Below, piece after piece: positions 37,852 to 50,411 of a stretch of DNA of 64,000 bases. Source of the stretch: Candidatus Limnocylindria bacterium (lineage in GTDB: Bacteria; Chloroflexota; Limnocylindria; P2-11E); assembly GCA_035699805.1 (NCBI GenBank), contig DASSPF010000133.1, positions 9,659 to 73,658 on the forward strand, written 5' to 3'. Position numbers and translations under genes: made by a program. Each line of letters begins with the position of its first letter. Position 1 is the first letter of the stretch. The notes beneath the pieces were generated by a model. The model was not told the DNA's origin. It saw only the letters and a list, made by a program, of their open reading frames with translations, and did not search any database.

Positions 37852-40080
37852 CTATCGCCCGTCCCGGTGCACGCTGAACACGTCGCGGATGCCTTCGAGG
37901 CGCGCCAGCACGCGCGAGAGCTGCTCCACGCTGGTGACCTGGAGCGTCGCGTTGACGGTCGCGGTCTTGTCGGGGTTGGCGGCCGCGGACAGCGCGACGA
38001 GCTGGACCTGGTTCTCGCTGATCACCGCCGCCACGTCGCGGAGGAAGCCGTCGCGATCCCACCCCTCGATGCGTATCGCGACCGGGTAGGTGCGCGTCGT
38101 GCTCTGCTCCCACTCCACCTCGACCAGCCGCTCCTTCTCGCCGCTGCCAGCGACGTTCGCGCAGTCGCCGCGATGCACCGTCACGCCACGACCGCGCGTG
38201 ATGTAGCCCAGGATCTGATCGCCCGGCACCGGGTTGCAGCAGACCGCGAAGCGCACGAGCAGGTCCCCCACGCCCTTCACCCGCACGCCGCCGCGCGAGG
38301 AGGTCGGCGGCAGTGCCGGCGCGATCTCGGGAAGCTGCTGCTGGGCATCGTCCACGATCCCGAGGCGCGTGACGACCTGGGCCGCGGTCACCGCACCGTA
38401 GCCGAGCGAGGCGAAGAGCGTCTCGACGTCGTGCATGTTCATCGCCTCGGTCACGCGGCGCAGGTCCGCATCGGTGATGTCGCCGAGCGAGCGCTGCGCG
38501 AGGCGCTTCAGCTCGCGGTCCAGGAGCTCCTTGCCGTGCGCGACGTTCTCGTCCCGCTGCGAGCGCTTGAACCACTGCCGGATCTTCTCGCGCGCGCCCG
38601 GCGTCCGGACCATGCCAAGCCAGTCGCGGGACGGACCGCGCGCGGCCTTGCTGGTGACGATCTCCACGATGTCCCCGGACTGGAGCCGGTGGTCGAGCGG
38701 AACGATCCGGCCGTTCACCTTCGCGCCGATCGTGCGATGCCCGACGTCGGTGTGGATGCGGTAGGCGAAGTCGATCGGAGTCGAGCCGGCCGGGAGCGCC
38801 TTCACCTCGCCCTTCGGGGTGAACACGAAGACCTCGTCCTGGAACACGTCCACCTTGAGCGATTCGACGAACTCCTGCGCGTCGGCGACGTCGTGCTGCC
38901 ATTCCAGCAGCTGCCGCACCCAGGCGAGCTTGGACTCGTAGCTCTTGTCGCCCTTGCCGCCCTCCTTGTACCGCCAGTGCGCGGCGATGCCGTACTCCGC
39001 GAGCGCGTGCATCTCGGTCGTGCGCACCTGGATCTCCAGCGGCTGGCCGCCCGGACCCATCACCGCCGTATGCAGCGACTGGTAGAGGTTCGCCTTCGGC
39101 ACGGCGATGTAGTCGTCGAACTGCCCCGGCACCGGCGGCCACAGGGTGTGCACCACGCCGAGCGCCGCGTAGCACGAGGGGACATCGTCGACGATGACGC
39201 GTATCGCGAGCAGGTCGTAGACCTCGTTGAAGCCCACGTCCTTCCGTCGCATCTTCTGCGCTATCGACCAGAGGTGCTTCGCGCGGCCGGAGAGCTCCGC
39301 GCGGATGCCGGCCTTCTCCAGCTCGCTCGCGAGCGTCTTCATGGCCTGGTCGATGTGGCGCTCGCGTACCTGGCGCCGCTCCGCGAGCTGCTCGGCGAGC
39401 TCCTTGTAGCGCTCCGGCTCGAGGTACTTGAACGCGAGATCTTCGAGCTCCCACTTCATCTGCCAGATGCCCAGACGGTGAGCCAGCGGCGCGTAGATCT
39501 CCATCGTCTGCTGCGCGATCCGGCGCTGCTTCTCGACCGGGAGCGGCGACAGGGTGCGCATGTTGTGCAGCCGGTCCGCGAGCTTGATGACCACCACGCG
39601 CAGGTCGTCGGCCATCGCGAGGAACATCTTTCGGATGTTCTCGGCCTGGTGCATGTCGCGCGACTGGCCCTGGAGCCGGCCGAGCTTGGTCACCCCCTCC
39701 ACCAGCCGCCCGATCTCGTCGCCGAACTGCTGGCGGATGTCGTCTGCGGTCCGCGCGGTGTCCTCGGGTACGTCGTGGAGCAGGGCGGCGGCCACCGTGG
39801 CAGGGTCCATCCCCAGCTCGGCGATGAGCATGGCGACCGCGGCTGGGTGCGTCATGTACGGCTCACCGGAGACGCGGCGCTGCGGCTCATGCGCCTCCGC
39901 CGCGTACGCGTAGGCGCGACGCACCAGCTCGGTGTCACCGTCGGGGTAGTGCCGCAGCAGCTCCTTCACCACGGTGTCCGCATCCACATGCGCGTGCCGT
40001 GGCCGGAACCGTTCGGTGATCCCGACGATGCGGGCGGTGATGGGATTGGCGCGCGGCGCCGTCGTCCGTTCCACTCTCAT
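37852..40080 (-). CDS. relA: Bifunctional (p)ppGpp synthetase/hydrolase RelA/SpoT
   Basis: HD hydrolase (LLHDVPEDT), synthetase domain, TGS and ACT. The start is trimmed to MRVERTTAPR. ATGA overlap with recJ. Confidence 0.85.
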   Translation of the reverse strand: MRVERTTAPRANPITARIVGITERFRPRHAHVDADTVVKELLRHYPDGDTELVRRAYAYAAEAHEPQRRVSGEPYMTHPAAVAMLIAELGMDPATVAAALLHDVPEDTARTADDIRQQFGDEIGRLVEGVTKLGRLQGQSRDMHQAENIRKMFLAMADDLRVVVIKLADRLHNMRTLSPLPVEKQRRIAQQTMEIYAPLAHRLGIWQMKWELEDLAFKYLEPERYKELAEQLAERRQVRERHIDQAMKTLASELEKAGIRAELSGRAKHLWSIAQKMRRKDVGFNEVYDLLAIRVIVDDVPSCYAALGVVHTLWPPVPGQFDDYIAVPKANLYQSLHTAVMGPGGQPLEIQVRTTEMHALAEYGIAAHWRYKEGGKGDKSYESKLAWVRQLLEWQHDVADAQEFVESLKVDVFQDEVFVFTPKGEVKALPAGSTPIDFAYRIHTDVGHRTIGAKVNGRIVPLDHRLQSGDIVEIVTSKAARGPSRDWLGMVRTPGAREKIRQWFKRSQRDENVAHGKELLDRELKRLAQRSLGDITDADLRRVTEAMNMHDVETLFASLGYGAVTAAQVVTRLGIVDDAQQQLPEIAPALPPTSSRGGVRVKGVGDLLVRFAVCCNPVPGDQILGYITRGRGVTVHRGDCANVAGSGEKERLVEVEWEQSTTRTYPVAIRIEGWDRDGFLRDVAAVISENQVQLVALSAAANPDKTATVNATLQVTSVEQLSRVLARLEGIRDVFSVHRDGR

Positions 40081-41783
40081 ACGGCCGCCGCTTCCAGCCG
40101 CATGCGGTCGGCGGTACCCACGGGTCCGAAGTCGCGGAGCTCGAGCTCGACGAACCCTCGAAGACCCGTCCCGATCGTGACCACCGCGTCCACGTGCCCC
40201 GCGTCGGTCATGTCCCCCGCATGATCGCCGCGGCGGAAGGCCATCGCGTCGAACGTGAACCGCCCGAGCGTGATCTTGCACCGCAGGTGGTCGGCATCGG
40301 CCCCGACCTGGCGGATGCCGTACACCCGGACGTTCCGCAGCAGGAAGTGCGGCCGCGGATTCCCCGCCCCGCACGGCTCCAGGTCGGCGAGCTCCAGCGC
40401 GAGCCGGGCGGTCACCGCCTCCGGTTCGATCTCAGCGTCGACGCGCAGCGTCGGCACGGGCCGCACGCCACCGAGTCGTCGCCGCACGACCTCGTCGAGC
40501 CGCTCGGTGAACGCTGGGATGAGGTCGCGGGCGACCGAGAATCCGGCCGCCATGGCATGTCCACCGTGCTTGATGAGCAGGTCCCCACACTCACCGAGCG
40601 CCTCCGCGATGTGCACCGACGAGATCGAGCGGCACGAGCCTTTGCCTTCGTCACCGCTCATGGCGATGACCACGGCGGGGCGGCCGTGATCCTCCACCAG
40701 CCGTGAGGCGGCCAGGCCCACGATGCCCGCCGGCCACTCCGGATCGGCGACCACCGTCGCCCAGGCGTCCGGACGCTCCGCCGCGCGCTCCCGCGCCGCC
40801 TTCACCACCTGGCGGGTGAGCTCCTGGCGCTCGCTGTTCCGCTGTTCGAGGCGGTCCGCAAGCCCCTTGGCCTCCTCGGCGTCCTCCGTGAGCAGGAGGC
40901 GCAGCGCCTCCTCGGCGTCGGCGATCCGGCCCGCGGCATTGAGGCGCGGTCCGAGCACGTACCCGATGTCGCCCGCATCGACCTGACCGAGCTTCAGTCC
41001 CGCGCGCTCGACCAGTGCGCGCACGCCGACGAGCGGCGCGCGGTTGAGCGCGGCCAGGCCGCGGCGGACGAGCGCCCGGTTCGCGCCCTGGAGCGGCACG
41101 ACGTCCGCCACCGTGGCGAGCGCGACGAGCTGCAGCAGCTCATCCTCGCGCAGGGCGTAGCCGAGCTCGCCGAGGAGCGCGCGCGCCAGCACATGCGCGA
41201 CCCCGGCGCCGGACAGATCCTTGTCCAGGGACGGATCGCCCGGTCGCCGCGGATTCACCACCGCGTGGGCATTCGGCAGCTCGGCCGGCGGATGGTGATG
41301 ATCGGTGACGATCAGGTCGACCCCGAGCTCGCGCGCGAGCTCCGCTTCGCGGACCGCGGTCACGCCGCAGTCGACGGAGACGATGACCGTCGCCCCGTCG
41401 CCGGCGAGCTTGCGGATGGCCATGCCGTTGAGGCCGTACCCCTCCTCGTAGCGGTCGGGGATGTAGGCGGCCACCGCCACCCCGAGCTGACGGAAGGCGC
41501 GCACGAGAATGGCCGCGCCGGCGATGCCGTCGACGTCGTAGTCGCCATAGACGACGATGCGCTCGCGGGCGGCGAGCGCACGACGGAGTCGAGCGAGCGA
41601 CCGATCCAGATCGATCATCGGCGGCCCGCCCTCGAGCGCCCGCGCGGCGAGGAACTCGGCCATCTCGGCCGGCGCGTGGCCACGCGCCGCGAGGATGCGC
41701 GCCACCAGGGGCGCGATACCCGCGGGCGCCAGGACCGCGCGCTGTTCTGGGAGCAGCCAGCGCCGCTGCGGTGTCAGGGCCAT
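40077..41783 (-). CDS. recJ: Single-stranded-DNA-specific exonuclease RecJ
   Basis: DHH motifs (VYGDYDVDGI, DHH) and DHHA1. The start is trimmed to MALTPQRRWLL. Confidence 0.8.
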   Translation of the reverse strand: MALTPQRRWLLPEQRAVLAPAGIAPLVARILAARGHAPAEMAEFLAARALEGGPPMIDLDRSLARLRRALAARERIVVYGDYDVDGIAGAAILVRAFRQLGVAVAAYIPDRYEEGYGLNGMAIRKLAGDGATVIVSVDCGVTAVREAELARELGVDLIVTDHHHPPAELPNAHAVVNPRRPGDPSLDKDLSGAGVAHVLARALLGELGYALREDELLQLVALATVADVVPLQGANRALVRRGLAALNRAPLVGVRALVERAGLKLGQVDAGDIGYVLGPRLNAAGRIADAEEALRLLLTEDAEEAKGLADRLEQRNSERQELTRQVVKAARERAAERPDAWATVVADPEWPAGIVGLAASRLVEDHGRPAVVIAMSGDEGKGSCRSISSVHIAEALGECGDLLIKHGGHAMAAGFSVARDLIPAFTERLDEVVRRRLGGVRPVPTLRVDAEIEPEAVTARLALELADLEPCGAGNPRPHFLLRNVRVYGIRQVGADADHLRCKITLGRFTFDAMAFRRGDHAGDMTDAGHVDAVVTIGTGLRGFVELELRDFGPVGTADRMRLEAAAV

Positions 41784-41797
41784 CGTGTGGTCCAGTC

Positions 41798-41836
41798 TCG
41801 CATGCGACGAGGCCGGCCCGTGATTGGCCGACCTCG
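41798..41836. promoter_or_regulatory. Perfect 10-nt palindrome TCGCATGCGA plus an adjacent 11-bp imperfect inverted repeat, between ftsH and recJ
   Basis: Seen directly, 14-40 nt upstream of the recJ start. A candidate operator and/or ftsH terminator stem. Confidence 0.3.
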
Positions 41837-41856
41837 CGATACGTGCGGGTGCGCGG

Positions 41857-43752
41857 CTAAGGGATCGTCTTCGTCGCGCCCTGCCCGGCGGCCGCCGCGG
41901 CGGCGATGGCGAGCGGGGCGGCTTGATCGCTCCGCTCACCCCACTCCTCGTTGATCTTCGGCAGGACCACCGGCTTTCGCTCGAAGGGCTTGGCGGCCTC
42001 GGGGTTGGAGAGGTCGGCCGCGTCGAAGATCTCCTCGAGCTCCTGCCCGATGAGCTCACCCTTCTGCATGAGCGCGCCGGCCACGGCGTGGACGGCGTAC
42101 TCCTTCTCGCGCATGAGGCGCTTGGTCTCTTCGAACAGCTCGTCGAGCAGGCGGTCGGCCAGGCGCAGGACCGGGCCGGGTGGCGTCATCACGCCGCTCG
42201 CCGGCACGGCGAGGAGCGTCGGACCCATACCGAGCTGTCCGATGTACTGCATCGCCAGATACGTCGCGGTCTGGAGATCCGAGCCGGCGCCGGACATCCG
42301 CGTCTGAAGGATGACCTCCTCGACGGCGCGGGAGCCGAGCGACACCATGATGTCGGTCTCGATCTCACGGGCATGGCGCGTGTAGCGCTCTTCGCGCGAG
42401 CTGCGCTGCACCACGCCGAGCGCATCGCCCATCCGGATGATGGACGCCTTCTGGAGACGATTCTCCTGCTGGAGGTAGCGGGCCGCGACGGCGTGGCCGG
42501 CCTCGTGGTACGCGATGGCGCGGCGATCGGCCGCGGACATCGTTTGGATGGGCTGCTTGATCCCGAGCTGGCGCGAGTCGCGTGCCTGGAGCCAGTCGCG
42601 GTAGTTCAGCGCGTCGCGCCCAGCGTCGTGCGCGATCACGAGCGCCTCGTTGATGATCGTCTTGATCTCGATGGGCGTCCAACCGATCGAGTCCTGCACC
42701 ATCATGTCGACGGGGATCGCTGGATCGTGCGACTTCTGCCGCAGGTAGAACTGGATGATGTCCCTTCGACCGTCGCCGTCGGGCGCGTAGATGTTGAGAC
42801 GACGGTCGAGGCGTCCTGGACGGACCAGGGCCGGATCGAGGACGTCGGGGCGGTTCGTCGCTCCGATCACGAAGACGATCGGCTTCTGGCCGACGGGGCC
42901 GCGGATGAGGCCGAGCCAGCGCCCGATGCGCCGGCTGAGGCGGTCCTCGACGTGCTGCCCGAGGGAGTCCATCTGATTGAGCATGGTGTTCAGCGCGAAG
43001 CCGCGGCCGCCCATCATGCCCATCGGGCCCATCGCGCCCTGCTGCTGGCCGCCCTGCACGCCGCCGCGCGACATGCCGACGGAATCGAGCTCGTCCAGGA
43101 ACATGATGCAGACGCCGGGGCTGCCCGGGGTCGCGTACTTGCGCGCGAGACCACGCGCCTTGCGGAACAGCGAGATGACGATGAGCGCGTCCATACCGAA
43201 CCACATGCTCGTGAGGCTGGACGCATCGACGTAGATGAAGGGCAGGCCGGCTTCGGCGGCGACGACGCCCGCCAGGAACGTCTTGCCGGTGCCGGGGGGA
43301 CCGGCGAGGAGCATGCCCTTCGGCATCTCGCCGCCGGCCTTCTGGAAGCGCTCGACGCCCTTGAGGATCCGCACCAGGCTCTTGGCGTGATCGAGCAGAT
43401 CGGGCTGACCCCGGTAGTTCTCGAATGACAGGCCGATCTGCGGGCTGTCCGGCGTCACCGTGTAGGTGCGCGGCCGCGAGAGGAACCACATGAGCACGCC
43501 GAACTGCATGATCATCGCGAAGGCGTAGAAGAGGAGCAGGACGAGCATCTGCGGCGCGTTCGAGATGAGGCCGAGGAGGCCCTCGAAGATGCCGCGGATG
43601 CCGTACAGGAAGAGGGCGATCCCGAAGATGACCGCGAGGATGATCAGGCGCCGGAGGTTGTGCTCGAGCACGTAGGCGGTCGTCATCAGGAAGGATTGCG
43701 CGCGCGTGGGCGGGGTCGGCGCCCCAGCGGGTTGCACAGAGGTCTGCTGCAT
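41857..43752 (-). CDS. ftsH: FtsH-like AAA+ zinc metalloprotease (atypical: two closely spaced TM helices, no periplasmic domain)
   Basis: Walker A GPPGTGKT, second region of homology, HEAGHAV zinc motif and a long C-terminal extension. Only about 20 aa separate the two N-terminal TM segments. Confidence 0.8.
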   Translation of the reverse strand: MQQTSVQPAGAPTPPTRAQSFLMTTAYVLEHNLRRLIILAVIFGIALFLYGIRGIFEGLLGLISNAPQMLVLLLFYAFAMIMQFGVLMWFLSRPRTYTVTPDSPQIGLSFENYRGQPDLLDHAKSLVRILKGVERFQKAGGEMPKGMLLAGPPGTGKTFLAGVVAAEAGLPFIYVDASSLTSMWFGMDALIVISLFRKARGLARKYATPGSPGVCIMFLDELDSVGMSRGGVQGGQQQGAMGPMGMMGGRGFALNTMLNQMDSLGQHVEDRLSRRIGRWLGLIRGPVGQKPIVFVIGATNRPDVLDPALVRPGRLDRRLNIYAPDGDGRRDIIQFYLRQKSHDPAIPVDMMVQDSIGWTPIEIKTIINEALVIAHDAGRDALNYRDWLQARDSRQLGIKQPIQTMSAADRRAIAYHEAGHAVAARYLQQENRLQKASIIRMGDALGVVQRSSREERYTRHAREIETDIMVSLGSRAVEEVILQTRMSGAGSDLQTATYLAMQYIGQLGMGPTLLAVPASGVMTPPGPVLRLADRLLDELFEETKRLMREKEYAVHAVAGALMQKGELIGQELEEIFDAADLSNPEAAKPFERKPVVLPKINEEWGERSDQAAPLAIAAAAAAGQGATKTIP

Positions 43753-44168
43753 CAGTTCACACCTACGATCTCGCCATTTTCGACACCGAATACGAATCCC
43801 ACGATCGCGTCGCTCCCCTGCGAGTCCTTCCCCGTGACGACATAGCCGGCGAGGACACGACCCTCCTTCTCGGTCGCTCCCACGAAGCGAACGCTGCGGA
43901 TGTCGGCCATCGCCGTGCCCGCCGGGCTCATGAGCGCCTCGCGCAGGGCGCCCAGCGTGTCCGTGTCGAGCAGACGCGCGAGCGTCTTCGCGTCGTTGTT
44001 CACCAGCGCGGACGCGACCTCCGCCGACGCCGGCGGCTCCGCGACCCGCTCGAGGCTCGGATACGGATTGGCCCGGGCGCCCGTGTCGGTGACCCGCTGG
44101 AGGACGACCCCGCCCACGATGCCTCCCAGGAAGAGCGCCAGGACGACCGCGGCGCGAGCCTCGTTCAT
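43752..44168 (-). CDS. Small membrane-anchored protein (N-terminal TM plus about 110 aa alpha/beta domain), paralog of the next gene
   Basis: 138 aa. Its start overlaps the upstream stop and its stop abuts the ftsH start. The C-terminal strands resemble the neighbour (DSQGSDAIVGFVFG vs DGSQQLFPLALTLLG). Confidence 0.5.
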   Translation of the reverse strand: MNEARAAVVLALFLGGIVGGVVLQRVTDTGARANPYPSLERVAEPPASAEVASALVNNDAKTLARLLDTDTLGALREALMSPAGTAMADIRSVRFVGATEKEGRVLAGYVVTGKDSQGSDAIVGFVFGVENGEIVGVN

Positions 44169-44596
44169 CGCGTGGTGACCACCTTGCCGCCGAGCAGCGT
44201 CAGCGCGAGCGGGAACAGCTGCTGGCTGCCGTCATTCGTGCGCACTTCCACGGCGTAGATCTGGACGCTGAAGCTGCCCTGCGAGGCGCCGCCGAGGTAC
44301 GTGAGCGATACCGGCTTGGCGGACTGTTGGCTCTGCTGGGCCGCGTGCTCCGAGAGCGCCTGCGACACCACGTCCTGCTGGGGGCGGAGCCGGTTGATGT
44401 TGTCCGCCTCGCGCTGGAGCAGGGCGATCATGTAGTTGCGCGCCTGGGCCGACTCGCCCGACGTCGCGAACCAGCCACGGTCGCTGATGACCGCGCTCAC
44501 CGAGGCGGAGAGCATGTATCCGACGACCGCACCCACCAGGATCATCCCGAGCCCGGTGCGGATGCCGCGCGGCAGCCAGCCGAAGAGCTTCCCCAC
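44165..44596 (-). CDS. Small membrane-anchored protein (N-terminal TM plus about 110 aa domain)
   Basis: 143 aa (MGKLFGWLPRGIRTGLGMILVGAVVGYML...). First gene of the ftsH-like operon. Confidence 0.5.
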   Translation of the reverse strand: MGKLFGWLPRGIRTGLGMILVGAVVGYMLSASVSAVISDRGWFATSGESAQARNYMIALLQREADNINRLRPQQDVVSQALSEHAAQQSQQSAKPVSLTYLGGASQGSFSVQIYAVEVRTNDGSQQLFPLALTLLGGKVVTTR

Positions 44597-44630
44597 GTGT
44601 GAAGTCTATGTGCCGAATGGCAGAAAAGGT

Positions 44631-45779
44631 TCAGCCGGCGCTGCGCAGGACCTCCACCGCGAAGCCCAACAGACCCGCGAGCTCGCGGACCCAGAAGTCC
44701 GCTCCCTGCTGGCGGGCTTCGGGTCCGAGCGCGGCCGCATGCGAGAGGAGCCTGGTCAGCTGCAGCCGCGTCGCGGCCGGACGCGGCGCCACGGCGGCGG
44801 TCTCGGCCTCGCTCACCGGCTCGAAGCGATCCCCCTCGTCGTGCAGCCAGTACACCGGCACCCGCACGTCGGCCCAGCGCGTCCGCGGCGAGAGCGTCGA
44901 GAAGGTGTCGCGGAGCCCGGTCGGCAGGGCCGCGAGCCGGGCGAGGGCGCGCTCGTAGTCGGTCTCCGCGAGCGCTGCCCAGAGCGCGCGCGCCTCGAGA
45001 CCGAGGGTCGCGGGCGCCTCGACGGCGAGCGGGCCGCCGCTGGAGCGGATCGCGTCGCCGACCGCGCGTCGATCGGCCTCGTCGGCGAGCGCCATCGCGG
45101 CACCCAGCGGAAGCTTCAGCCTGGCCTCGGGGTCCGGTGTCCACGGCTCGAGCGCGCCGTGGCGCCGCTGCGTGCCGGTGACGACGCTGGCGAGGTACGT
45201 GTCGATGTCGAAGTACGCCCCCAGAGCGCCGAGGTAGCGGGCACCCGCGAGCGCGGAGTCCGACCGCCCCGCTGCCGCGAAGAGGATCCCTCCGCCGACC
45301 GAGAAGCCGAACGCCCCGCTCCGGTCCGGATCGGCGTCGCCGCGCTGGAGCATCGTCGCGAACGCGGCGTCCACCTGGGCCGGCGCCGCGCGCTCGAGCC
45401 GGGCCTCCTTCAGGAATCCGAGCTCGGGGAGCATCACCAGATACCCCGCGCGCGCCAACGCGTCGCAGATGCGCCGCGTCTCAGCATCGTCGTTGCCGAG
45501 CGGCGTCGCGCCGTTCACGATCAGCATCGCCGGATGACGCTCCCCCGCGCCCGGCGCGAACCACGTGACACGCGACCTCACGCCCGCAAGGTCCACCGAG
45601 CTCTCGCTCACGCGCGGTTCCGGCGTCACCGCCGCCACCGCGTTCGATCCGGAGAGCGCGGATGAGTACACCGAGACGAGCACCACGCCGCCGCGCGCCA
45701 CCGGGCCGAGCAGCAGTGGCCACCACACCACGATGGCGACGAGGGACAGCGCGATGAGCAGGAGACCCGGTCGCCGCAC
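44631..45779 (-). CDS. Membrane-anchored alpha/beta hydrolase (dienelactone-hydrolase-like)
   Basis: N-terminal TM (LLLIALSLVAIVVWW) and a GFSVGG nucleophile elbow. Confidence 0.55.
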   Translation of the reverse strand: MRRPGLLLIALSLVAIVVWWPLLLGPVARGGVVLVSVYSSALSGSNAVAAVTPEPRVSESSVDLAGVRSRVTWFAPGAGERHPAMLIVNGATPLGNDDAETRRICDALARAGYLVMLPELGFLKEARLERAAPAQVDAAFATMLQRGDADPDRSGAFGFSVGGGILFAAAGRSDSALAGARYLGALGAYFDIDTYLASVVTGTQRRHGALEPWTPDPEARLKLPLGAAMALADEADRRAVGDAIRSSGGPLAVEAPATLGLEARALWAALAETDYERALARLAALPTGLRDTFSTLSPRTRWADVRVPVYWLHDEGDRFEPVSEAETAAVAPRPAATRLQLTRLLSHAAALGPEARQQGADFWVRELAGLLGFAVEVLRSAG

Positions 45780-45819
45780 GCGACGACGATAGTGGGGCGC
45801 GCCTCCGCTGGGATCCGGC

Positions 45820-45845
45820 GGACCCTCAGCTGAAGCGGAGGGTCC
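45820..45845 (-). terminator. Perfect 8-bp hairpin (GGACCCTC / GAGGGTCC) just downstream of secF, with no U-tract
   Basis: Seen in sequence. A weak terminator candidate. Confidence 0.3.
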
Positions 45846-45848
45846 TGT

Positions 45849-46760
45849 TCAGGCGGCGGCCGCGGTCCGGTGCCGCAGCCGATCATCGATCTCCTGCCAG
45901 AGCGACACGATCTGGCTGGCGTTGAAGATCGACGAGTACGTCCCGGAGATGATGCCGACGAGGAGCGCCAGGGCGAAGTTCCGGATCGAGAAGCCGCCGA
46001 ACAGGAACAGTGCGAGCAGTGTGAACACCACGGTGAGAGAGGTGATCACCGACCTGGTCATCGTCTGCATGATCGAGAAGTTGATGACCGGGTTCAGCGC
46101 CTCTCCCGGATTCAGCCGGAGGTTCTCGCGGATCCGGTCGAACACGACGATGGTGTCGTGCACGGAGAAGCCGATGATCGTGAGCACCGCTGTGACGAAG
46201 AGGCTGTCGATCTCGACGTTGAAGAAGTACCCGAGGATGGCGAAGAGGCCGAGCACGAACGCGGCGTCGTGGAGCAGCGCGATGATCGCGGCGATCCCGT
46301 AGCGGAAGGCCGCCCAGCCGAAGTTGCGGAACGCGAACGCGATGAGCAGGACGATGACGACGCTCGCGAGCGCGATCGATTTCACGGCGTTCTCGATGAG
46401 CTCGCCACTGAACGACGGGCTCACGACCGACGACGACACGTCCTTCATGTTCGCCCCGTAGCGCGCGCGAAGCGTGTCCTGGGTCTTGGTCACCTCGTCC
46501 GGACTCATGGCGAAGGTGCGCACCTCCACCCGGCCCCCCTCCGCGACCTGGACGATCGCCTCGTCATGGCCGAGGCCGCCCATGACCTCATGTACCTCGC
46601 TCACCGCGGGTGGCGAATCGAAGCGGATGTCGAGCAACGTGCCACCCTTGAACTCGATCCCCGGCTTCAGACCGCCCAGGGCAAGGAACACCAGCCCGGG
46701 GACGATGAGCAGGCCGGACAGGACGAAGTACAGCGTCTTGCGTTCGACGAAGTGGATCAC
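45849..46760 (-). CDS. secF: Protein translocase subunit SecF
   Basis: 303 aa, 6 TM (FKGGTLLDIRF, LHDAAFVLGLFAILG). Overlaps the secD stop. Confidence 0.85.
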   Translation of the reverse strand: MIHFVERKTLYFVLSGLLIVPGLVFLALGGLKPGIEFKGGTLLDIRFDSPPAVSEVHEVMGGLGHDEAIVQVAEGGRVEVRTFAMSPDEVTKTQDTLRARYGANMKDVSSSVVSPSFSGELIENAVKSIALASVVIVLLIAFAFRNFGWAAFRYGIAAIIALLHDAAFVLGLFAILGYFFNVEIDSLFVTAVLTIIGFSVHDTIVVFDRIRENLRLNPGEALNPVINFSIMQTMTRSVITSLTVVFTLLALFLFGGFSIRNFALALLVGIISGTYSSIFNASQIVSLWQEIDDRLRHRTAAAA

Positions 46761-48109
46761 GGGGTCACCGCCGCGGTCACGCGGCCCTCACGGGCTTCCG
46801 CGCGCTCTTCGACGCCGTAGAAGCGCCGCTGCCGGAGCGCCGGGACCTCGATCGCGGCGTGCAGCAGCATCTGCGTCACGACGATCGCCGTGAAGAACGA
46901 GATCGCCACACCGATGGCCAGCGTGAGCGCGAAGCCTTTCACCGTGCCGGTGCCGAACCAGAAGAGGATGCCGGCGGTGAGGATCGTGGCGAGGTTCGAA
47001 TAGAAGATCGACGGGAAGGCGCGGACGCGGCCGGCCTCGACCGCCGCGCGCAGGGACTTCCCGCTGCGGAGCTCCTCCTTCAGCCTCTCGAACGTGAGCA
47101 CGTTCGCGTCCGTCGCCATGCCGATCGACAGGATGAAGCCCGCGACACCAGCGAGCGTGAGCGTCACCGGCACGAGACGGAAGATCGCGTACACCAGCGC
47201 CGTGTAATACAGGAGCGCGATCACCGCGATGGCCCCGGGCAGCCGGTAGTACGCGACCATGAAGAACGCCAACAGCAGCAGGCCGATGATCCCCGCGACG
47301 AGGCTCCGGTTCACCGAGTCGCGTCCGAGCGTCGGCTCGACGCGCGAGGACTGGATGACCTCGAGCGGGACCGGGAGCGCACCGGAGTTCAGAAGGAGCG
47401 AGAGCTCGCGTGCCTCCTGCGTCGTGAAGTTGCCCTCGATGATCCCGCTGCCCGAGGTGAAGATCGCGTTGATGCGCGGGGCCGAGATCTCCTTGCCGTC
47501 GAGGGTGATCTGCACCGGCTGCTGGTAGAAGTCCTTGGAGAGTTGCACCCACCGGTCGGAATCCGCGCCGGTGAACTCGAAGTTCACCACGGGCTTCGTG
47601 CCGTTGGCGAAGGTGACGAAGGTCGGCTTGAGGTTCGCGCCGGTGAGCGGCGGCTCCAGCGATTTGTACGAGCCCGGCTTGTCCTTGTCGGGCACCTTGA
47701 TCTCGAGGAACGCCTGCTGCGTCGCGACCTTGTTCGCCTGCGCCAGGTCGGAGATGCCCGGAAGCTCGAGTAGCAGCTTGTCATCGCCCAGGCCCTGGAT
47801 GACGGGCTCCGACACGCCGAGCGAATTGATGCGGCGCTCGATGACCCGGATCGCCTGCCGCTGGAGCTCGGACTGGGGCGTGGTGACGCCCGGCGGGAGC
47901 CTGTCCATCTGCATGCGCAGGATCAGCTGGGTCCCGCCCTGAAGATCCAGACCGAGGTGCGTCTTGATCTCCTGGTTCACCTTGAAGTCACCGATGCGCA
48001 GGCAGATGCCCGGGCAGTTGAACGGGAACGAGAACTGGTGCTTCGGGATGTCGACGAACACCGCGAGCACCGCGATGATCCCGACCAGCCACGGACCAAG
48101 ACGTCCCAA
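46757..48109 (-). CDS. secD: Protein translocase subunit SecD
   Basis: 450 aa (LGLDLQGGTQLIL, periplasmic domain, C-terminal 6 TM). Confidence 0.85.
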   Translation of the reverse strand: MGRLGPWLVGIIAVLAVFVDIPKHQFSFPFNCPGICLRIGDFKVNQEIKTHLGLDLQGGTQLILRMQMDRLPPGVTTPQSELQRQAIRVIERRINSLGVSEPVIQGLGDDKLLLELPGISDLAQANKVATQQAFLEIKVPDKDKPGSYKSLEPPLTGANLKPTFVTFANGTKPVVNFEFTGADSDRWVQLSKDFYQQPVQITLDGKEISAPRINAIFTSGSGIIEGNFTTQEARELSLLLNSGALPVPLEVIQSSRVEPTLGRDSVNRSLVAGIIGLLLLAFFMVAYYRLPGAIAVIALLYYTALVYAIFRLVPVTLTLAGVAGFILSIGMATDANVLTFERLKEELRSGKSLRAAVEAGRVRAFPSIFYSNLATILTAGILFWFGTGTVKGFALTLAIGVAISFFTAIVVTQMLLHAAIEVPALRQRRFYGVEERAEAREGRVTAAVTP

Positions 48110-48131
48110 CGGTGTGCTTCCCTCCGAGCGT

Positions 48132-48156
48132 GAAAACGAGCGCCACGAGGGCGCTC
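48132..48156 (-). terminator. Intrinsic terminator after tatA (GAGCGCC-loop-GGCGCTC followed by GTTTTC)
   Basis: Seen on the minus strand in the tatA-secD spacer. Confidence 0.5.
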
Positions 48157-48184
48157 GACCGCCTCAGTATAGGTCGCTCGGCGG

Positions 48185-48514
48185 TCATGTCCCGCGCAGC
48201 CGCTCGCGCGCCTCCCGCATCTCGCGATCGAACGCTGTCTCGACCGCCGGCTCGCTCGCCGTGCTCTCGGCCCGCTCCCCCGCGGTGCCGCCCGCGGGTG
48301 CGGCCGACTCGCCGGTCACCGCCGGCGCCACCGCGGGAGCCTCCAGGTACTTGTCGGCGTTCAGGAACTCCTCCCGCAGCTCATCGGACGTGCGCCGCAG
48401 ATCGCCCACCACGCGGCCGACATCGCGCGCGACCTTCGGCAGACGCTCTGGCCCAAGGACCAGGAGTGCGAGGAAGAGGACGAAGAGGAGCTCCTCGGCG
48501 CCGACGCCCAGCAT
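48185..48514 (-). CDS. tatA: Twin-arginine translocase TatA/TatB-family subunit
   Basis: 109 aa (MLGVGAEELLFVLFLALLVLGPERLPKVARDVGRVVGDLRR). TM plus amphipathic helix and an acidic tail. The start overlaps the pyrF stop. Confidence 0.7.
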   Translation of the reverse strand: MLGVGAEELLFVLFLALLVLGPERLPKVARDVGRVVGDLRRTSDELREEFLNADKYLEAPAVAPAVTGESAAPAGGTAGERAESTASEPAVETAFDREMREARERLRGT

Positions 48515-49338
48515 CAGCGGCGCTCCAGCACGGTGGCGCGCGCCGCGTTGGCCTCGTCGCGGAGTGCCCGTGCCGCTTCGGCGGCGGCCCGCCCGAAGTC
48601 GTCGGCGCGTGAGGCGTACAGCACCGAGCGCGACGCCGACGGCAGCACGCCTCCGCCGTCAGCGTCGAGCGCCGCCCGCAGCGCGGCGGCGAGATCGCCG
48701 CCCTGCGCACCGACACCCGGCATGAGGAACAGCCGATCCGGCGCGAGCTCGCGCAGGCGTCGCGCTTCCTCCGGGTACGTCGCGCCGACCACGAAGCCGC
48801 AGCGGCTCGCGGGGAACGCGCTCACCGCGGCCATGACGACCCGCTCGTACAGCGGCCGACCGTCCACGATGAGGTCCTGCAGGTCGCGCGCGCCAGGGTT
48901 GCTCGTGCGGGCCAGGACGAGCGCGTAGCGGTCGTCACCGGTGAATGGGGTGATCGAGTCCATGCCCAGGTACGGCGCGACCGTCACGGCATCGGCACGG
49001 AAGGGTCCGAAGAGCGCGTCGGCGTAGGCCGCGGCGGTGTTCGGGACATCACCGCGCTTGGCGTCAAGGATCACCGGGATGTCGTCGGGGATCGCCTGGA
49101 GCGTCAGCCCGAGCACGTCGAACGCCGCGCTGCCGTAGCGCTCGAAGAACGCGAGATTCGGCTTGTAACAGCAGGCATATTCCGACGTCGCGTGGATGAT
49201 CCGCCGCAGGAAGCGCAGCGCCGCCTGGGGACCACGACCCAGCGATGTGGGAATGAGATCGGGTTCGGGATCCAGACCAACGCAGATGATGCTGTCCCGA
49301 GCCCGCGACGATGACGCGAGCTTCTCGAGGAACGTCAT
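48514..49338 (-). CDS. pyrF: Orotidine-5'-phosphate decarboxylase (long, type-2 form)
   Basis: 274 aa (ICVGLDP, KPNLAFFE, DAKRGD). Confidence 0.8.
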   Translation of the reverse strand: MTFLEKLASSSRARDSIICVGLDPEPDLIPTSLGRGPQAALRFLRRIIHATSEYACCYKPNLAFFERYGSAAFDVLGLTLQAIPDDIPVILDAKRGDVPNTAAAYADALFGPFRADAVTVAPYLGMDSITPFTGDDRYALVLARTSNPGARDLQDLIVDGRPLYERVVMAAVSAFPASRCGFVVGATYPEEARRLRELAPDRLFLMPGVGAQGGDLAAALRAALDADGGGVLPSASRSVLYASRADDFGRAAAEAARALRDEANAARATVLERR

Positions 49339-49385
49339 CTGGCGCTTATCATACGAGCGCTTCCACAGATCGAAGGAGGGAACCC

Positions 49386-50411
49386 ATGCGCTTCAGCCTA
49401 CGCGGCCCGTTGGGGTGGACGTTGGCCGCAGGCCTGGTCATCGCAGCCTGCGGTGGCACGGGCGGCACGACGACCCCGACATCCTCGGCTGCGCCCACCG
49501 CGGCCGCGAGCACCGGCCCCCGTCTCGGCTCATTCGACCGGCCGATCGTGCTCTCGTTCACGCCCTCGCAGGACACGCAGCGCGTCACGGCGAGCGGCAG
49601 CGCGATCACCGCGGCGCTCGAGAAGGCCACGAGCCTCAAGTGGAAGGTCTCCGTGCCCACGAGCTACGCGGCCACGATCGAAGGCATGTGCGCAGGATCG
49701 GTCGATGTCGCCTTCCTCGCGCCGCTGCAGATGGCACTTGCGCTCGACCGCGGTTGCGCGACGCCGTTCCTCGGAGCGCTCCGCAACGACGAGACCGGCA
49801 AGCCATCGACGGTGTACTACTCGCAGATCCTCGTCCGCGCAGACAGCGGCATCAACGATGTGAGCGGCCTCAAGGGCAAGAAGTTCGCCTTCGTCGACAC
49901 GCTCTCGGCGTCGGGCTACCTCTTCCCGCTCCTCAAGATCAAGGAGAAGGGCGGGGCGGACCCGAAGACGTTCTTCGCCAGCAACGGGATCGTCTTTGCT
50001 GGTGGACATGACAAGGCCGCGCTCGCGGTCTATCAGGGGACCGTCGACGGTGCGGCGACGTTCATCGACGTGCGCACTCAGCAGGGCATGCCTGCCGACA
50101 TCATGCAGAAGACGAAGGTGATCGAGCGCGCCGGACCCATCCCCAACGACGGCGCCGCGCTCCGCAAGGGCTTCCCCACCGATCTCGCCGCGCAGATCCA
50201 GAAGGCGATGACGGACTACGCCGCGACCGACGACGGGAAGAAGACCTTCAAGGCGCTCTACAGCTGGGACGGCATGCAGCCGGTGGACTCGAAGACCTAT
50301 GACCCGGTGCGCGACGCCGCCAAGCTCGCGGGTATCGACCTCGAAGGCGAGGCGAAGAAGACCGCGCGGCCGGTCGCCACGCCAGCCCCGTCACCGACAA
50401 AGGCACCGTAG
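49386..50411 (+). CDS. phnD: Phosphonate/phosphite ABC transporter substrate-binding lipoprotein
   Basis: Start trimmed to MRFSLRGPLGWTLAAGLVIAACGG (lipobox). PhnD-like periplasmic binding fold (LAPLQ, GYLFPL). Confidence 0.7.
   Translation: MRFSLRGPLGWTLAAGLVIAACGGTGGTTTPTSSAAPTAAASTGPRLGSFDRPIVLSFTPSQDTQRVTASGSAITAALEKATSLKWKVSVPTSYAATIEGMCAGSVDVAFLAPLQMALALDRGCATPFLGALRNDETGKPSTVYYSQILVRADSGINDVSGLKGKKFAFVDTLSASGYLFPLLKIKEKGGADPKTFFASNGIVFAGGHDKAALAVYQGTVDGAATFIDVRTQQGMPADIMQKTKVIERAGPIPNDGAALRKGFPTDLAAQIQKAMTDYAATDDGKKTFKALYSWDGMQPVDSKTYDPVRDAAKLAGIDLEGEAKKTARPVATPAPSPTKAP

Follow-up and report, generated by a model that had tools for sequence, protein, structure and literature searches.

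A conserved three-gene unit encoding a divergent FtsH-type protease and two small membrane proteins in Limnocylindria

A contig assigned to Candidatus Limnocylindria bacterium (phylum Chloroflexota; GenBank assembly GCA_035699805.1, contig DASSPF010000133.1, positions 9,659 to 73,658) encodes an atypical relative of the membrane protease FtsH next to two small membrane proteins. This 64,000-nucleotide stretch, referred to as the window, has a GC content of ~70%. Every long coherent open reading frame (ORF) between its positions 41857 and 45779 lies on the minus strand, and the four same-strand ORFs of this region have the coordinates and lengths given by an initial annotation, which had been made from the sequence alone (Table 1). 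They encode a hydrolase, two small proteins here designated S1 and S2, and an FtsH-like protein designated FtsHL. The stop codon of S1 and the start codon of S2 overlap by 4 nt (ATGA, 44165-44168) and the stop of S2 and the start of FtsHL by 1 nt (TGATG, 43752), both as annotated, and a gap of 34 nt separates the hydrolase stop from the S1 start. The conserved unit at this locus is a three-gene, translationally coupled module consisting of S1, S2 and FtsHL, hereafter the trio.

The FtsH-type modules initially ascribed to FtsHL, AAA+ and HEAGH, are both present with intact catalytic motifs, the protein being recognized by the Pfam models AAA (98 bits) and Peptidase_M41 (96 bits, cut-off 29.9). 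In an alignment of 23 family members, the Walker A motif, which aligns with the FtsH P-loop, is invariant, and there is no variation, or almost none, in the Walker B motif DELD, the pore-1 loop MWFG and the second region of homology ATNRPDVLDPALVRPGRLDR. FtsHL has the full set of AAA+ elements, including the aromatic pore residue and the Arg fingers. The C-terminal M41 zinc protease domain has its HEXXH motif (H416-E-A-G-H420), aligned to the HEAGH of FtsH, and this motif is invariant in the same alignment together with E478/E479 and D492. The Pfam M41 profile matches strongly in the first half of the domain only; pairwise alignment to the closest solved relative, Thermus thermophilus FtsH (2dhr), spans the whole protease domain and is collinear up to residue 601 of 631. 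Past the FtsH fold there remains an Ala-rich tail of only ~30 residues, where the initial annotation had claimed a long extra C-terminus. Judged by these motifs, FtsHL is a divergent, probably catalytically competent FtsH-type ATP-dependent zinc protease, and pipelines of the Joint Genome Institute (JGI) name it "cell division protease FtsH". Public sequence data include an identical protein, assigned to Candidatus Limnocylindria bacterium.

Against TIGR01241, the FtsH equivalog model, FtsHL scores 287.8 bits in two stretches, below the cut-off of 600, and against PRK10733 it scores 199 bits, where the cut-off is 1008. A hydropathy scan places its hydrophobic helices at about residues 31-60 and 66-92, and FtsHL is without an extracytoplasmic domain because these helices are joined by no more than 16 residues; Pfam likewise gave no match to FtsH_ext in FtsHL. 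The closely spaced helices and the missing periplasmic domain of the initial annotation were thus borne out. The hairpin region is constant in length and free of gaps across the family, with conserved N32, R35, G58, P67 and Q83-F84-G85. Since FtsHL fails both the equivalog threshold and the ectodomain expected of the FtsH architecture, we class it as a distinct subfamily of the FtsH family and not as FtsH proper.

The AAA module also holds an insertion (residues 239-291) that was not among the features first annotated. Where the alignment to solved structures breaks, between residues 238 and 292, FtsHL has 53 residues and T. thermophilus FtsH has 19, a difference of ~34. The first part of the insertion is the Gly/Gln/Met-rich segment GGQQQGAMGPMGMMGG, which extends the pore-2 region, and the second is the basic amphipathic segment HVEDRLSRRIGRWLGLIRGPV; both are conserved in the family alignment.

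S1 and S2, originally described as two paralogous small membrane proteins of about 140 aa with no recognisable motif, have one N-terminal hydrophobic helix each according to the hydropathy scan and match no family in Pfam, NCBIfam or PADLOC. For each, about 140-150 homologues are detectable, all of them in Limnocylindria/Chloroflexota and often with adjacent locus tags. The paralogy is visible at the profile level only. BLASTP between S1 and S2 gives an E-value of 5.4, i.e. no similarity, and shallow profiles give 0.022. Broad profiles were built from disjoint sets of 70 S1 and 63 S2 sequences, collected by non-iterated searches from the 80 related loci described below, and were aligned by hhalign with a Prob of 97.6% and an E-value of 4e-12; the 122 aligned columns are collinear and take in the transmembrane helix. 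The S1 hidden Markov model also matches 58 of the 63 S2 sequences at E < 0.01. Because the broad, disjoint profiles reversed the outcome of BLASTP and of the shallow profiles, we accept on these alignments that S1 and S2 are real distant paralogues with ~20% identity.

An NTF2-like fold had been guessed for the small proteins, and structural modelling agrees with it. Each protein is predicted to consist of a single transmembrane helix and a globular domain in the form of an alpha+beta cone, with N-terminal helices on a curved antiparallel sheet and structural similarity to NTF2-like proteins. At the level of sequence, Tim44-like, SnoaL and the other Pfam NTF2 families gave no match to the proteins of the window or to 26 members of the S2 family at E-values up to 1, with none in NCBIfam either, and no Band_7/SPFH domain was found in S1 or S2 by Pfam or NCBIfam. 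S1 and S2 belong to the NTF2-like fold class, yet to no described sequence family. One S2 homologue has been named "lipid-binding transport protein (Tim44 family)" by JGI.

The transmembrane helices of both proteins contain an invariant GxxxG motif (G22/G26 in S1, G16/G20 in S2), the C-terminus of S2 has an invariant IVGVN, and the cytoplasmic tails are very short, with ~13 residues in S1 and ~5 in S2. The charge bias of S1 (K+R 1.74 versus 0.15) indicates an N-terminus inside and a domain outside; that of S2 (K+R 1.04 in the N-flank versus 1.88 in the C-flank) is ambiguous or reversed, opposite to S1. Pairwise ratios of nonsynonymous to synonymous substitution (dN/dS) against seven relatives are 0.25-0.45 for both S1 and S2, indicating purifying selection, the absence of which had been named beforehand as a reason to abandon the proposed module. 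A signal peptide in S2 was considered and rejected: the hydrophobic core ends ~10 residues before the putative AXA site, and this site lacks conservation, with Glu at position -1 in several homologues. Similarly, a single ORF of 284 aa that covers S1 and S2 at one related locus (L032:2088-2942) was not accepted as a natural fusion, being a single case in which ~45 nt, comprising the last S1 strand and the stop codon, have been lost; this joined ORF represents a deletion or an assembly error.

The conservation of these genes was examined by scanning one genome per GTDB species with two FtsHL-specific peptide patterns, which yielded 80 loci, all in metagenome-assembled genomes (MAGs) of the Limnocylindria/Chloroflexota type and with FtsHL identities of 54-85%; across Limnocylindria, FtsHL identity is 54-100%. 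Two S-domain genes lie directly upstream of FtsHL on the same strand in all 71 of the loci that have at least 1 kb of upstream DNA, and the six loci without S genes are cut at a contig end. Orthologous loci lacking the small genes, which the initial annotation had said would count against its proposal, are therefore not seen among these 71. Clustering of the neighbouring genes left S-S-FtsHL as the only invariant element, in at least three types of surroundings: secD-secF-(hydrolase)-trio-(opposite-strand gene)-recJ-relA; uvrB-uvrA-MFS (major facilitator superfamily)-trio; and ROK-sugar ABC (ATP-binding cassette) transporter-trio...ccsA-like. The earlier suggestion of a dedicated unit of the FtsH-like gene with its small neighbours gains from this recurrence in several unrelated neighbourhoods. 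Two FtsHL copies are present in MAG JAGWSB01 (L024, L077) and two in MAG VGPE01 (L040, L046); because each FtsHL of VGPE01 has its own S1-S2 pair, duplication apparently affects the module as a whole, provided that the bins are not mixed.

Several of these loci carry labels or gene models that deserve comment. Contigs labelled Candidatus Acidiferrales (L003), Dormiibacterota (L071) and Actinomycetota (L080) encode FtsHL with 84%, 67% and 65% identity, respectively, and an S1-S2 pair upstream; they are probably mis-binned Limnocylindria contigs. At L074, L078 and L080, which come from two uncultured Chloroflexia 'MFD' assemblies and the one labelled Actinomycetota, the coding sequence of FtsHL is broken up into ORFs that overlap in different frames, most likely through assembly indel errors. 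An extra gene of ~470 aa on the opposite strand (cluster c4, 28 loci) lies between FtsHL and recJ at L004, L008, L009, L011-L017 and others (e.g. L012:4795-6213, minus strand); it is absent from the window, where FtsHL and recJ are 73 nt apart.

The fourth gene of the proposed block is a membrane-anchored alpha/beta (dienelactone-hydrolase-like) protein with an N-terminal hydrophobic segment. Its assignment as a hydrolase rests on the G-x-S-x-G nucleophile elbow, GFSVGG in the translation, and on the Pfam DLH score of 26.8 bits (cut-off 21), a partial match to profile positions 12-129 of 217 that places it in the family. It was said to follow the protease gene; read along the coding strand, it comes after secF and before S1, upstream of both small genes. 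Its distribution rules it out as a member of the module, with only about 20 loci (cluster c6) containing it, all of the secDF-recJ synteny type. Since it is missing from close relatives of the same synteny type that keep secF-S1-S2-FtsHL (L003, L006, L012, L013, L015-L018, L055, L057 and L075), as it is from all loci of the other types, the hydrolase is best described as a lineage-specific neighbour. The four-gene block thus holds in relatives for S1-S2-FtsHL and fails for the hydrolase. The secDF, recJ and relA genes are likewise only neighbours in one subclade, outside the module. Taken together, the initial annotation was right about the ORFs, overlaps, protease modules, hairpin and small paralogues, and wrong about the position of the hydrolase and the long C-terminus.

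FtsHL is not confined to Limnocylindria. When 1.8 billion cluster representatives were searched exhaustively with HMMER, dozens of proteins with 36-51% identity emerged whose alignment to FtsHL runs unbroken from the hairpin into the protease, whereas the alignment of canonical FtsH proteins to FtsHL splits at the insertion, which is kept in these relatives. Four derived features are common to them: the short hairpin, the motif F-x-D-Y-x-G-x-P, the Gly/Met-rich loop and the insertion MDPP...LLRKMGL. One cluster of relatives is named Chloroflexaceae/Oscillochloridaceae. By these shared sequence features, FtsHL is a distinct, widespread subfamily and not a lone fast-evolving orthologue.

The genes upstream of distant relatives were inspected at eight loci (L082-L089). 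An S-family gene lies immediately upstream in three of the eight, namely L082 from Chloroflexaceae (E 2e-6), L083 (1.5e-7) and L086 (1.7e-9), so that Chloroflexaceae and other lineages, with FtsHL identities of 40-44%, also pair S with FtsHL; the Chloroflexaceae pair has the consecutive GenBank accessions MCX7791852.1 and MCX7791853.1, and at L086 a further upstream gene contains two similar repeats. At L084, L085, L087 and L088 the upstream gene encodes a single-pass membrane protein outside the S family, and L089 has no small membrane gene there. In the outgroup S proteins, the N-tail is strongly basic and the helix is followed by a linker rich in Pro and Thr, which supports a topology with the N-terminus inside and the domain outside for the ancestral S protein. 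The simplest history starts from an ancestral pair of one S gene and FtsHL, in which S was later duplicated in tandem in Limnocylindria; lineages may also have differed in the ectodomain partners that they recruited. Among the other upstream genes, those at L085 (4032-4979) and L087 (3022-3981) encode membrane proteins of ~315 aa that resemble each other, do not belong to the S family and each seem to consist of two repeats, and the product of the one at L084 has a transmembrane helix and, after it, a coiled-coil part.

Because the S pair always directly precedes FtsHL in this group of Chloroflexota, the three genes probably constitute one undescribed protease module. A functional link among them is highly probable. 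That S1 and S2 are, overall, putative membrane partners of FtsHL in such a module is the explanation we favour, with a probability slightly better than even, and a physical complex of the small proteins with the protease appears about as probable. In such a complex, S1 and S2 would associate with the FtsHL hexamer in the membrane through helix-helix packing, their GxxxG helices packing on each other and on the conserved FtsHL hairpin. A more tentative proposal, whose chances we put below even, is a specific role for S1 and S2 as an ectodomain in trans or as adaptors: the extracytoplasmic module, part of the protease chain itself in canonical FtsH, would here be contributed in trans by S1 and S2, a placement that the charge bias makes clear for S1 and leaves uncertain for S2. 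The trans module might serve assembly or stabilisation of the hexamer, or act as a gate or adaptor that chooses membrane or exported substrates, and the basic amphipathic part of the AAA insertion might, speculatively, make contact with the membrane surface or with the short cytoplasmic tails. By analogy only, this role would be comparable to that of the FtsH periplasmic domain with HflK/C, or of Mgr1/Mgr3 of Yme1. The most far-reaching form of the proposal, which we regard as doubtful, is a "split" FtsH in Limnocylindria, Chloroflexaceae and the other lineages of the subfamily, with the ectodomain replaced by separate membrane-anchored NTF2-like subunits (an S1/S2 heteromer in Limnocylindria, possibly a ring over the hexamer) that set assembly and substrate choice, with FtsHL perhaps the sole, essential FtsH of these bacteria; a variant with S1 and S2 on opposite membrane faces is compatible with their opposite charge bias.

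Several observations weigh against this interpretation of S1 and S2. The structural model of S1 is of low confidence, with a predicted local distance difference test (pLDDT) score of 60, and the domain of S2 could be cytoplasmic, given its ambiguous charge bias. NTF2-like domains also occur as enzymes, ligand binders and sensors, a scaffold being just one option. The S partner is moreover not universal in the wider family, since L089 has none and four loci have non-homologous ones.

Other explanations of the trio give the small proteins a different role, or none. S1 and S2 could be dedicated substrates or regulated targets of FtsHL, for example sensors or anchors that relay an envelope signal by being degraded in a controlled way; we consider this unlikely, because their very short tails hold no recognisable anti-sigma or DNA-binding domain, no sigma factor or regulator is conserved near the trio, and the overlapping, translationally coupled ORFs suggest stoichiometric co-production. 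Somewhat less likely again is that FtsHL is no more than a fast-evolving orthologue serving Limnocylindria as their housekeeping FtsH, and that the small genes, specific to the clade and with some other accessory function in the membrane (e.g. lipid or ligand binding), persist beside it by operon inertia. The JGI names of FtsHL and of the Tim44-labelled S2 homologue are in its favour, and no second ftsH was found in the 64-kb window or in the flanks (~1 Mb) of the 80 related loci. Operon inertia fails as an explanation, however, because the pairing recurs across contexts and lineages: the trio is intact in at least three unrelated contexts and duplicates as a unit, and S genes accompany FtsHL in Chloroflexaceae and elsewhere at the low identities given above. 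The place of FtsHL in a widespread subfamily with derived features of its own also argues against a lone orthologue.

A quality-control operon of four genes, in which the hydrolase acts together with S1, S2 and FtsHL, is suggested by their common strand and short gaps, by a region without terminator-like sites and by the co-occurrence of the hydrolase in about 20 related loci, but the absence of the hydrolase from many close relatives and from all other synteny types makes this very improbable. An anti-phage or conflict system built on an AAA ATPase has hardly any likelihood. The PADLOC models IetA and TRIP13 and the NCBIfam model IteA do match the AAA module of FtsHL, but these matches cover the generic AAA core only, S1, S2 and the hydrolase match nothing in PADLOC, and no known anti-phage system was found there with all of its components. 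The trio is also conserved class-wide among core housekeeping genes, at the 54-100% identity noted for FtsHL, unlike mobile defence islands.

In its N-terminal two-helix anchor, Walker A/B motifs, pore loop (W/F-M/F-G), second region of homology and M41 domain with HEAGH, FtsHL resembles canonical FtsH as known from Escherichia coli, T. thermophilus and Thermotoga maritima (2dhr, 2ce7; TIGR01241). Canonical FtsH differs in having an extracytoplasmic domain of ~70 residues (FtsH_ext, about 70-100) where FtsHL has at most 16; FtsHL differs in its ~34-residue insertion after Walker B, at pore-2, and in scoring 288 bits against a cut-off of 600.

Among known partners of such proteases, a close parallel is provided by E. 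coli HflK and HflC, two paralogous, single-pass proteins with the N-terminus inside and large extracytoplasmic domains, which associate with FtsH and modulate access of membrane substrates. S1 and S2 are also two paralogous single-pass membrane proteins, with an N-terminus inside that is clear for S1 only. HflK/C, with about 350-420 aa, belong to the SPFH/Band-7 proteins, build a large cage and have genes that are not adjacent to ftsH, whereas S1 and S2, with ~140 aa, are NTF2-like, have no SPFH match in Pfam and are encoded in translational coupling with the protease. Membrane-anchored NTF2-like scaffold proteins are represented by Tim44 and by conjugation proteins of the VirB8/TraM/TcpC type; S1 and S2 do not belong to these at the sequence level, have no secretion or conjugation genes of this kind nearby, and are associated with a protease. 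The mitochondrial i-AAA protease Yme1, a member of the FtsH family with a reduced membrane and ectodomain part, relies on the separate small membrane proteins Mgr1 and Mgr3 for substrate recruitment. Yme1 spans the membrane with a single helix and is exposed to the opposite compartment, and Mgr1/Mgr3 are unrelated to S1/S2 in sequence and fold, which leaves an analogy only. Another departure from the housekeeping enzyme is PaFtsH2 of Pseudomonas aeruginosa clone C, an accessory FtsH xenologue whose activity differs through its membrane-proximal region; it keeps the periplasmic domain and is located in a horizontally acquired proteostasis island (PMC10850787). FtsHL, in contrast, is vertically conserved across a bacterial class and has no ectodomain.

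Among membrane-anchored proteases that depend on ATP, FtsH alone is, to our knowledge, near-universal in bacteria, and work continues on how substrate access is controlled by its ectodomain and by partners such as HflK/C. A subfamily that has dispensed with the ectodomain, remodelled pore-2 and co-evolved with dedicated NTF2-like membrane partners would offer a natural experiment on what the ectodomain is for. In the open-access text searched, we found no paper that links FtsH-type proteases with NTF2-like partners or describes the FtsHL subfamily. Automatic annotation labels the proteases "cell division protease FtsH" or "AAA family ATPase" and the partners "hypothetical", and because of these labels the S-FtsHL link is invisible in databases. 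The pairing reported here provides the first genomic association for the orphan S1/S2 family, which is abundant in soil and freshwater Chloroflexota, and should be of moderate interest to the AAA+ protease field and for the annotation of these bacteria.

Table 1. Genes and protein features at the trio locus, in coordinates of the 64,000-nt window
Feature	Position	Strand	Description or basis
S1	44596-44165	minus	143 aa, GTG start; single-pass membrane protein
S2	44168-43752	minus	138 aa; single-pass membrane protein, predicted NTF2-like domain
FtsHL	43752-41857	minus	631 aa; divergent FtsH-type AAA+/M41 membrane protease; Pfam AAA + Peptidase_M41
FtsHL transmembrane hairpin, residues about 31-92	43477..43662	minus	Hydropathy scan; gap-free in family alignment
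FtsHL Walker A GPPGTGKT, residues 151-158	43279..43302	minus	Invariant in family alignment; aligned to FtsH P-loop
FtsHL family-specific insertion in AAA module, residues 239-291	42880..43038	minus	Gly/Gln/Met-rich loop, then HVEDR..RWLGLIRGPV; break in PDB alignment
FtsHL zinc-binding motif HEAGH, residues 416-420	42493..42507	minus	Invariant in family alignment; aligned to HEAGH of FtsH
Hydrolase	45779-44631	minus	382 aa
secF	46760-45849	minus	
secD	48109-46757	minus	
tatA-like	48514-48185	minus	
recJ	41783-40077	minus	
relA/spoT	about 40050-37852	minus	
pyrF	48514-49338	minus	Orotidine monophosphate (OMP) decarboxylase
Phosphonate-type ABC substrate-binding protein	49311-50411	plus	

In the window, the block from the hydrolase to FtsHL lies between secF and recJ, and the tatA-like gene, secD, secF, recJ and relA/spoT share its minus strand over positions 37852-48514; the identities of these flanking genes were upheld by Pfam. 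The trio has apparently been inserted into this secDF-recJ-relA cluster, since other Limnocylindria clades hold it in quite different neighbourhoods. A scan of positions 41500-46200 found no sigma-70-like promoter and no intrinsic terminator. Upstream of the tatA-like gene, pyrF and the gene for a phosphonate-type ABC substrate-binding protein overlap at their 5' ends, an ordinary arrangement.

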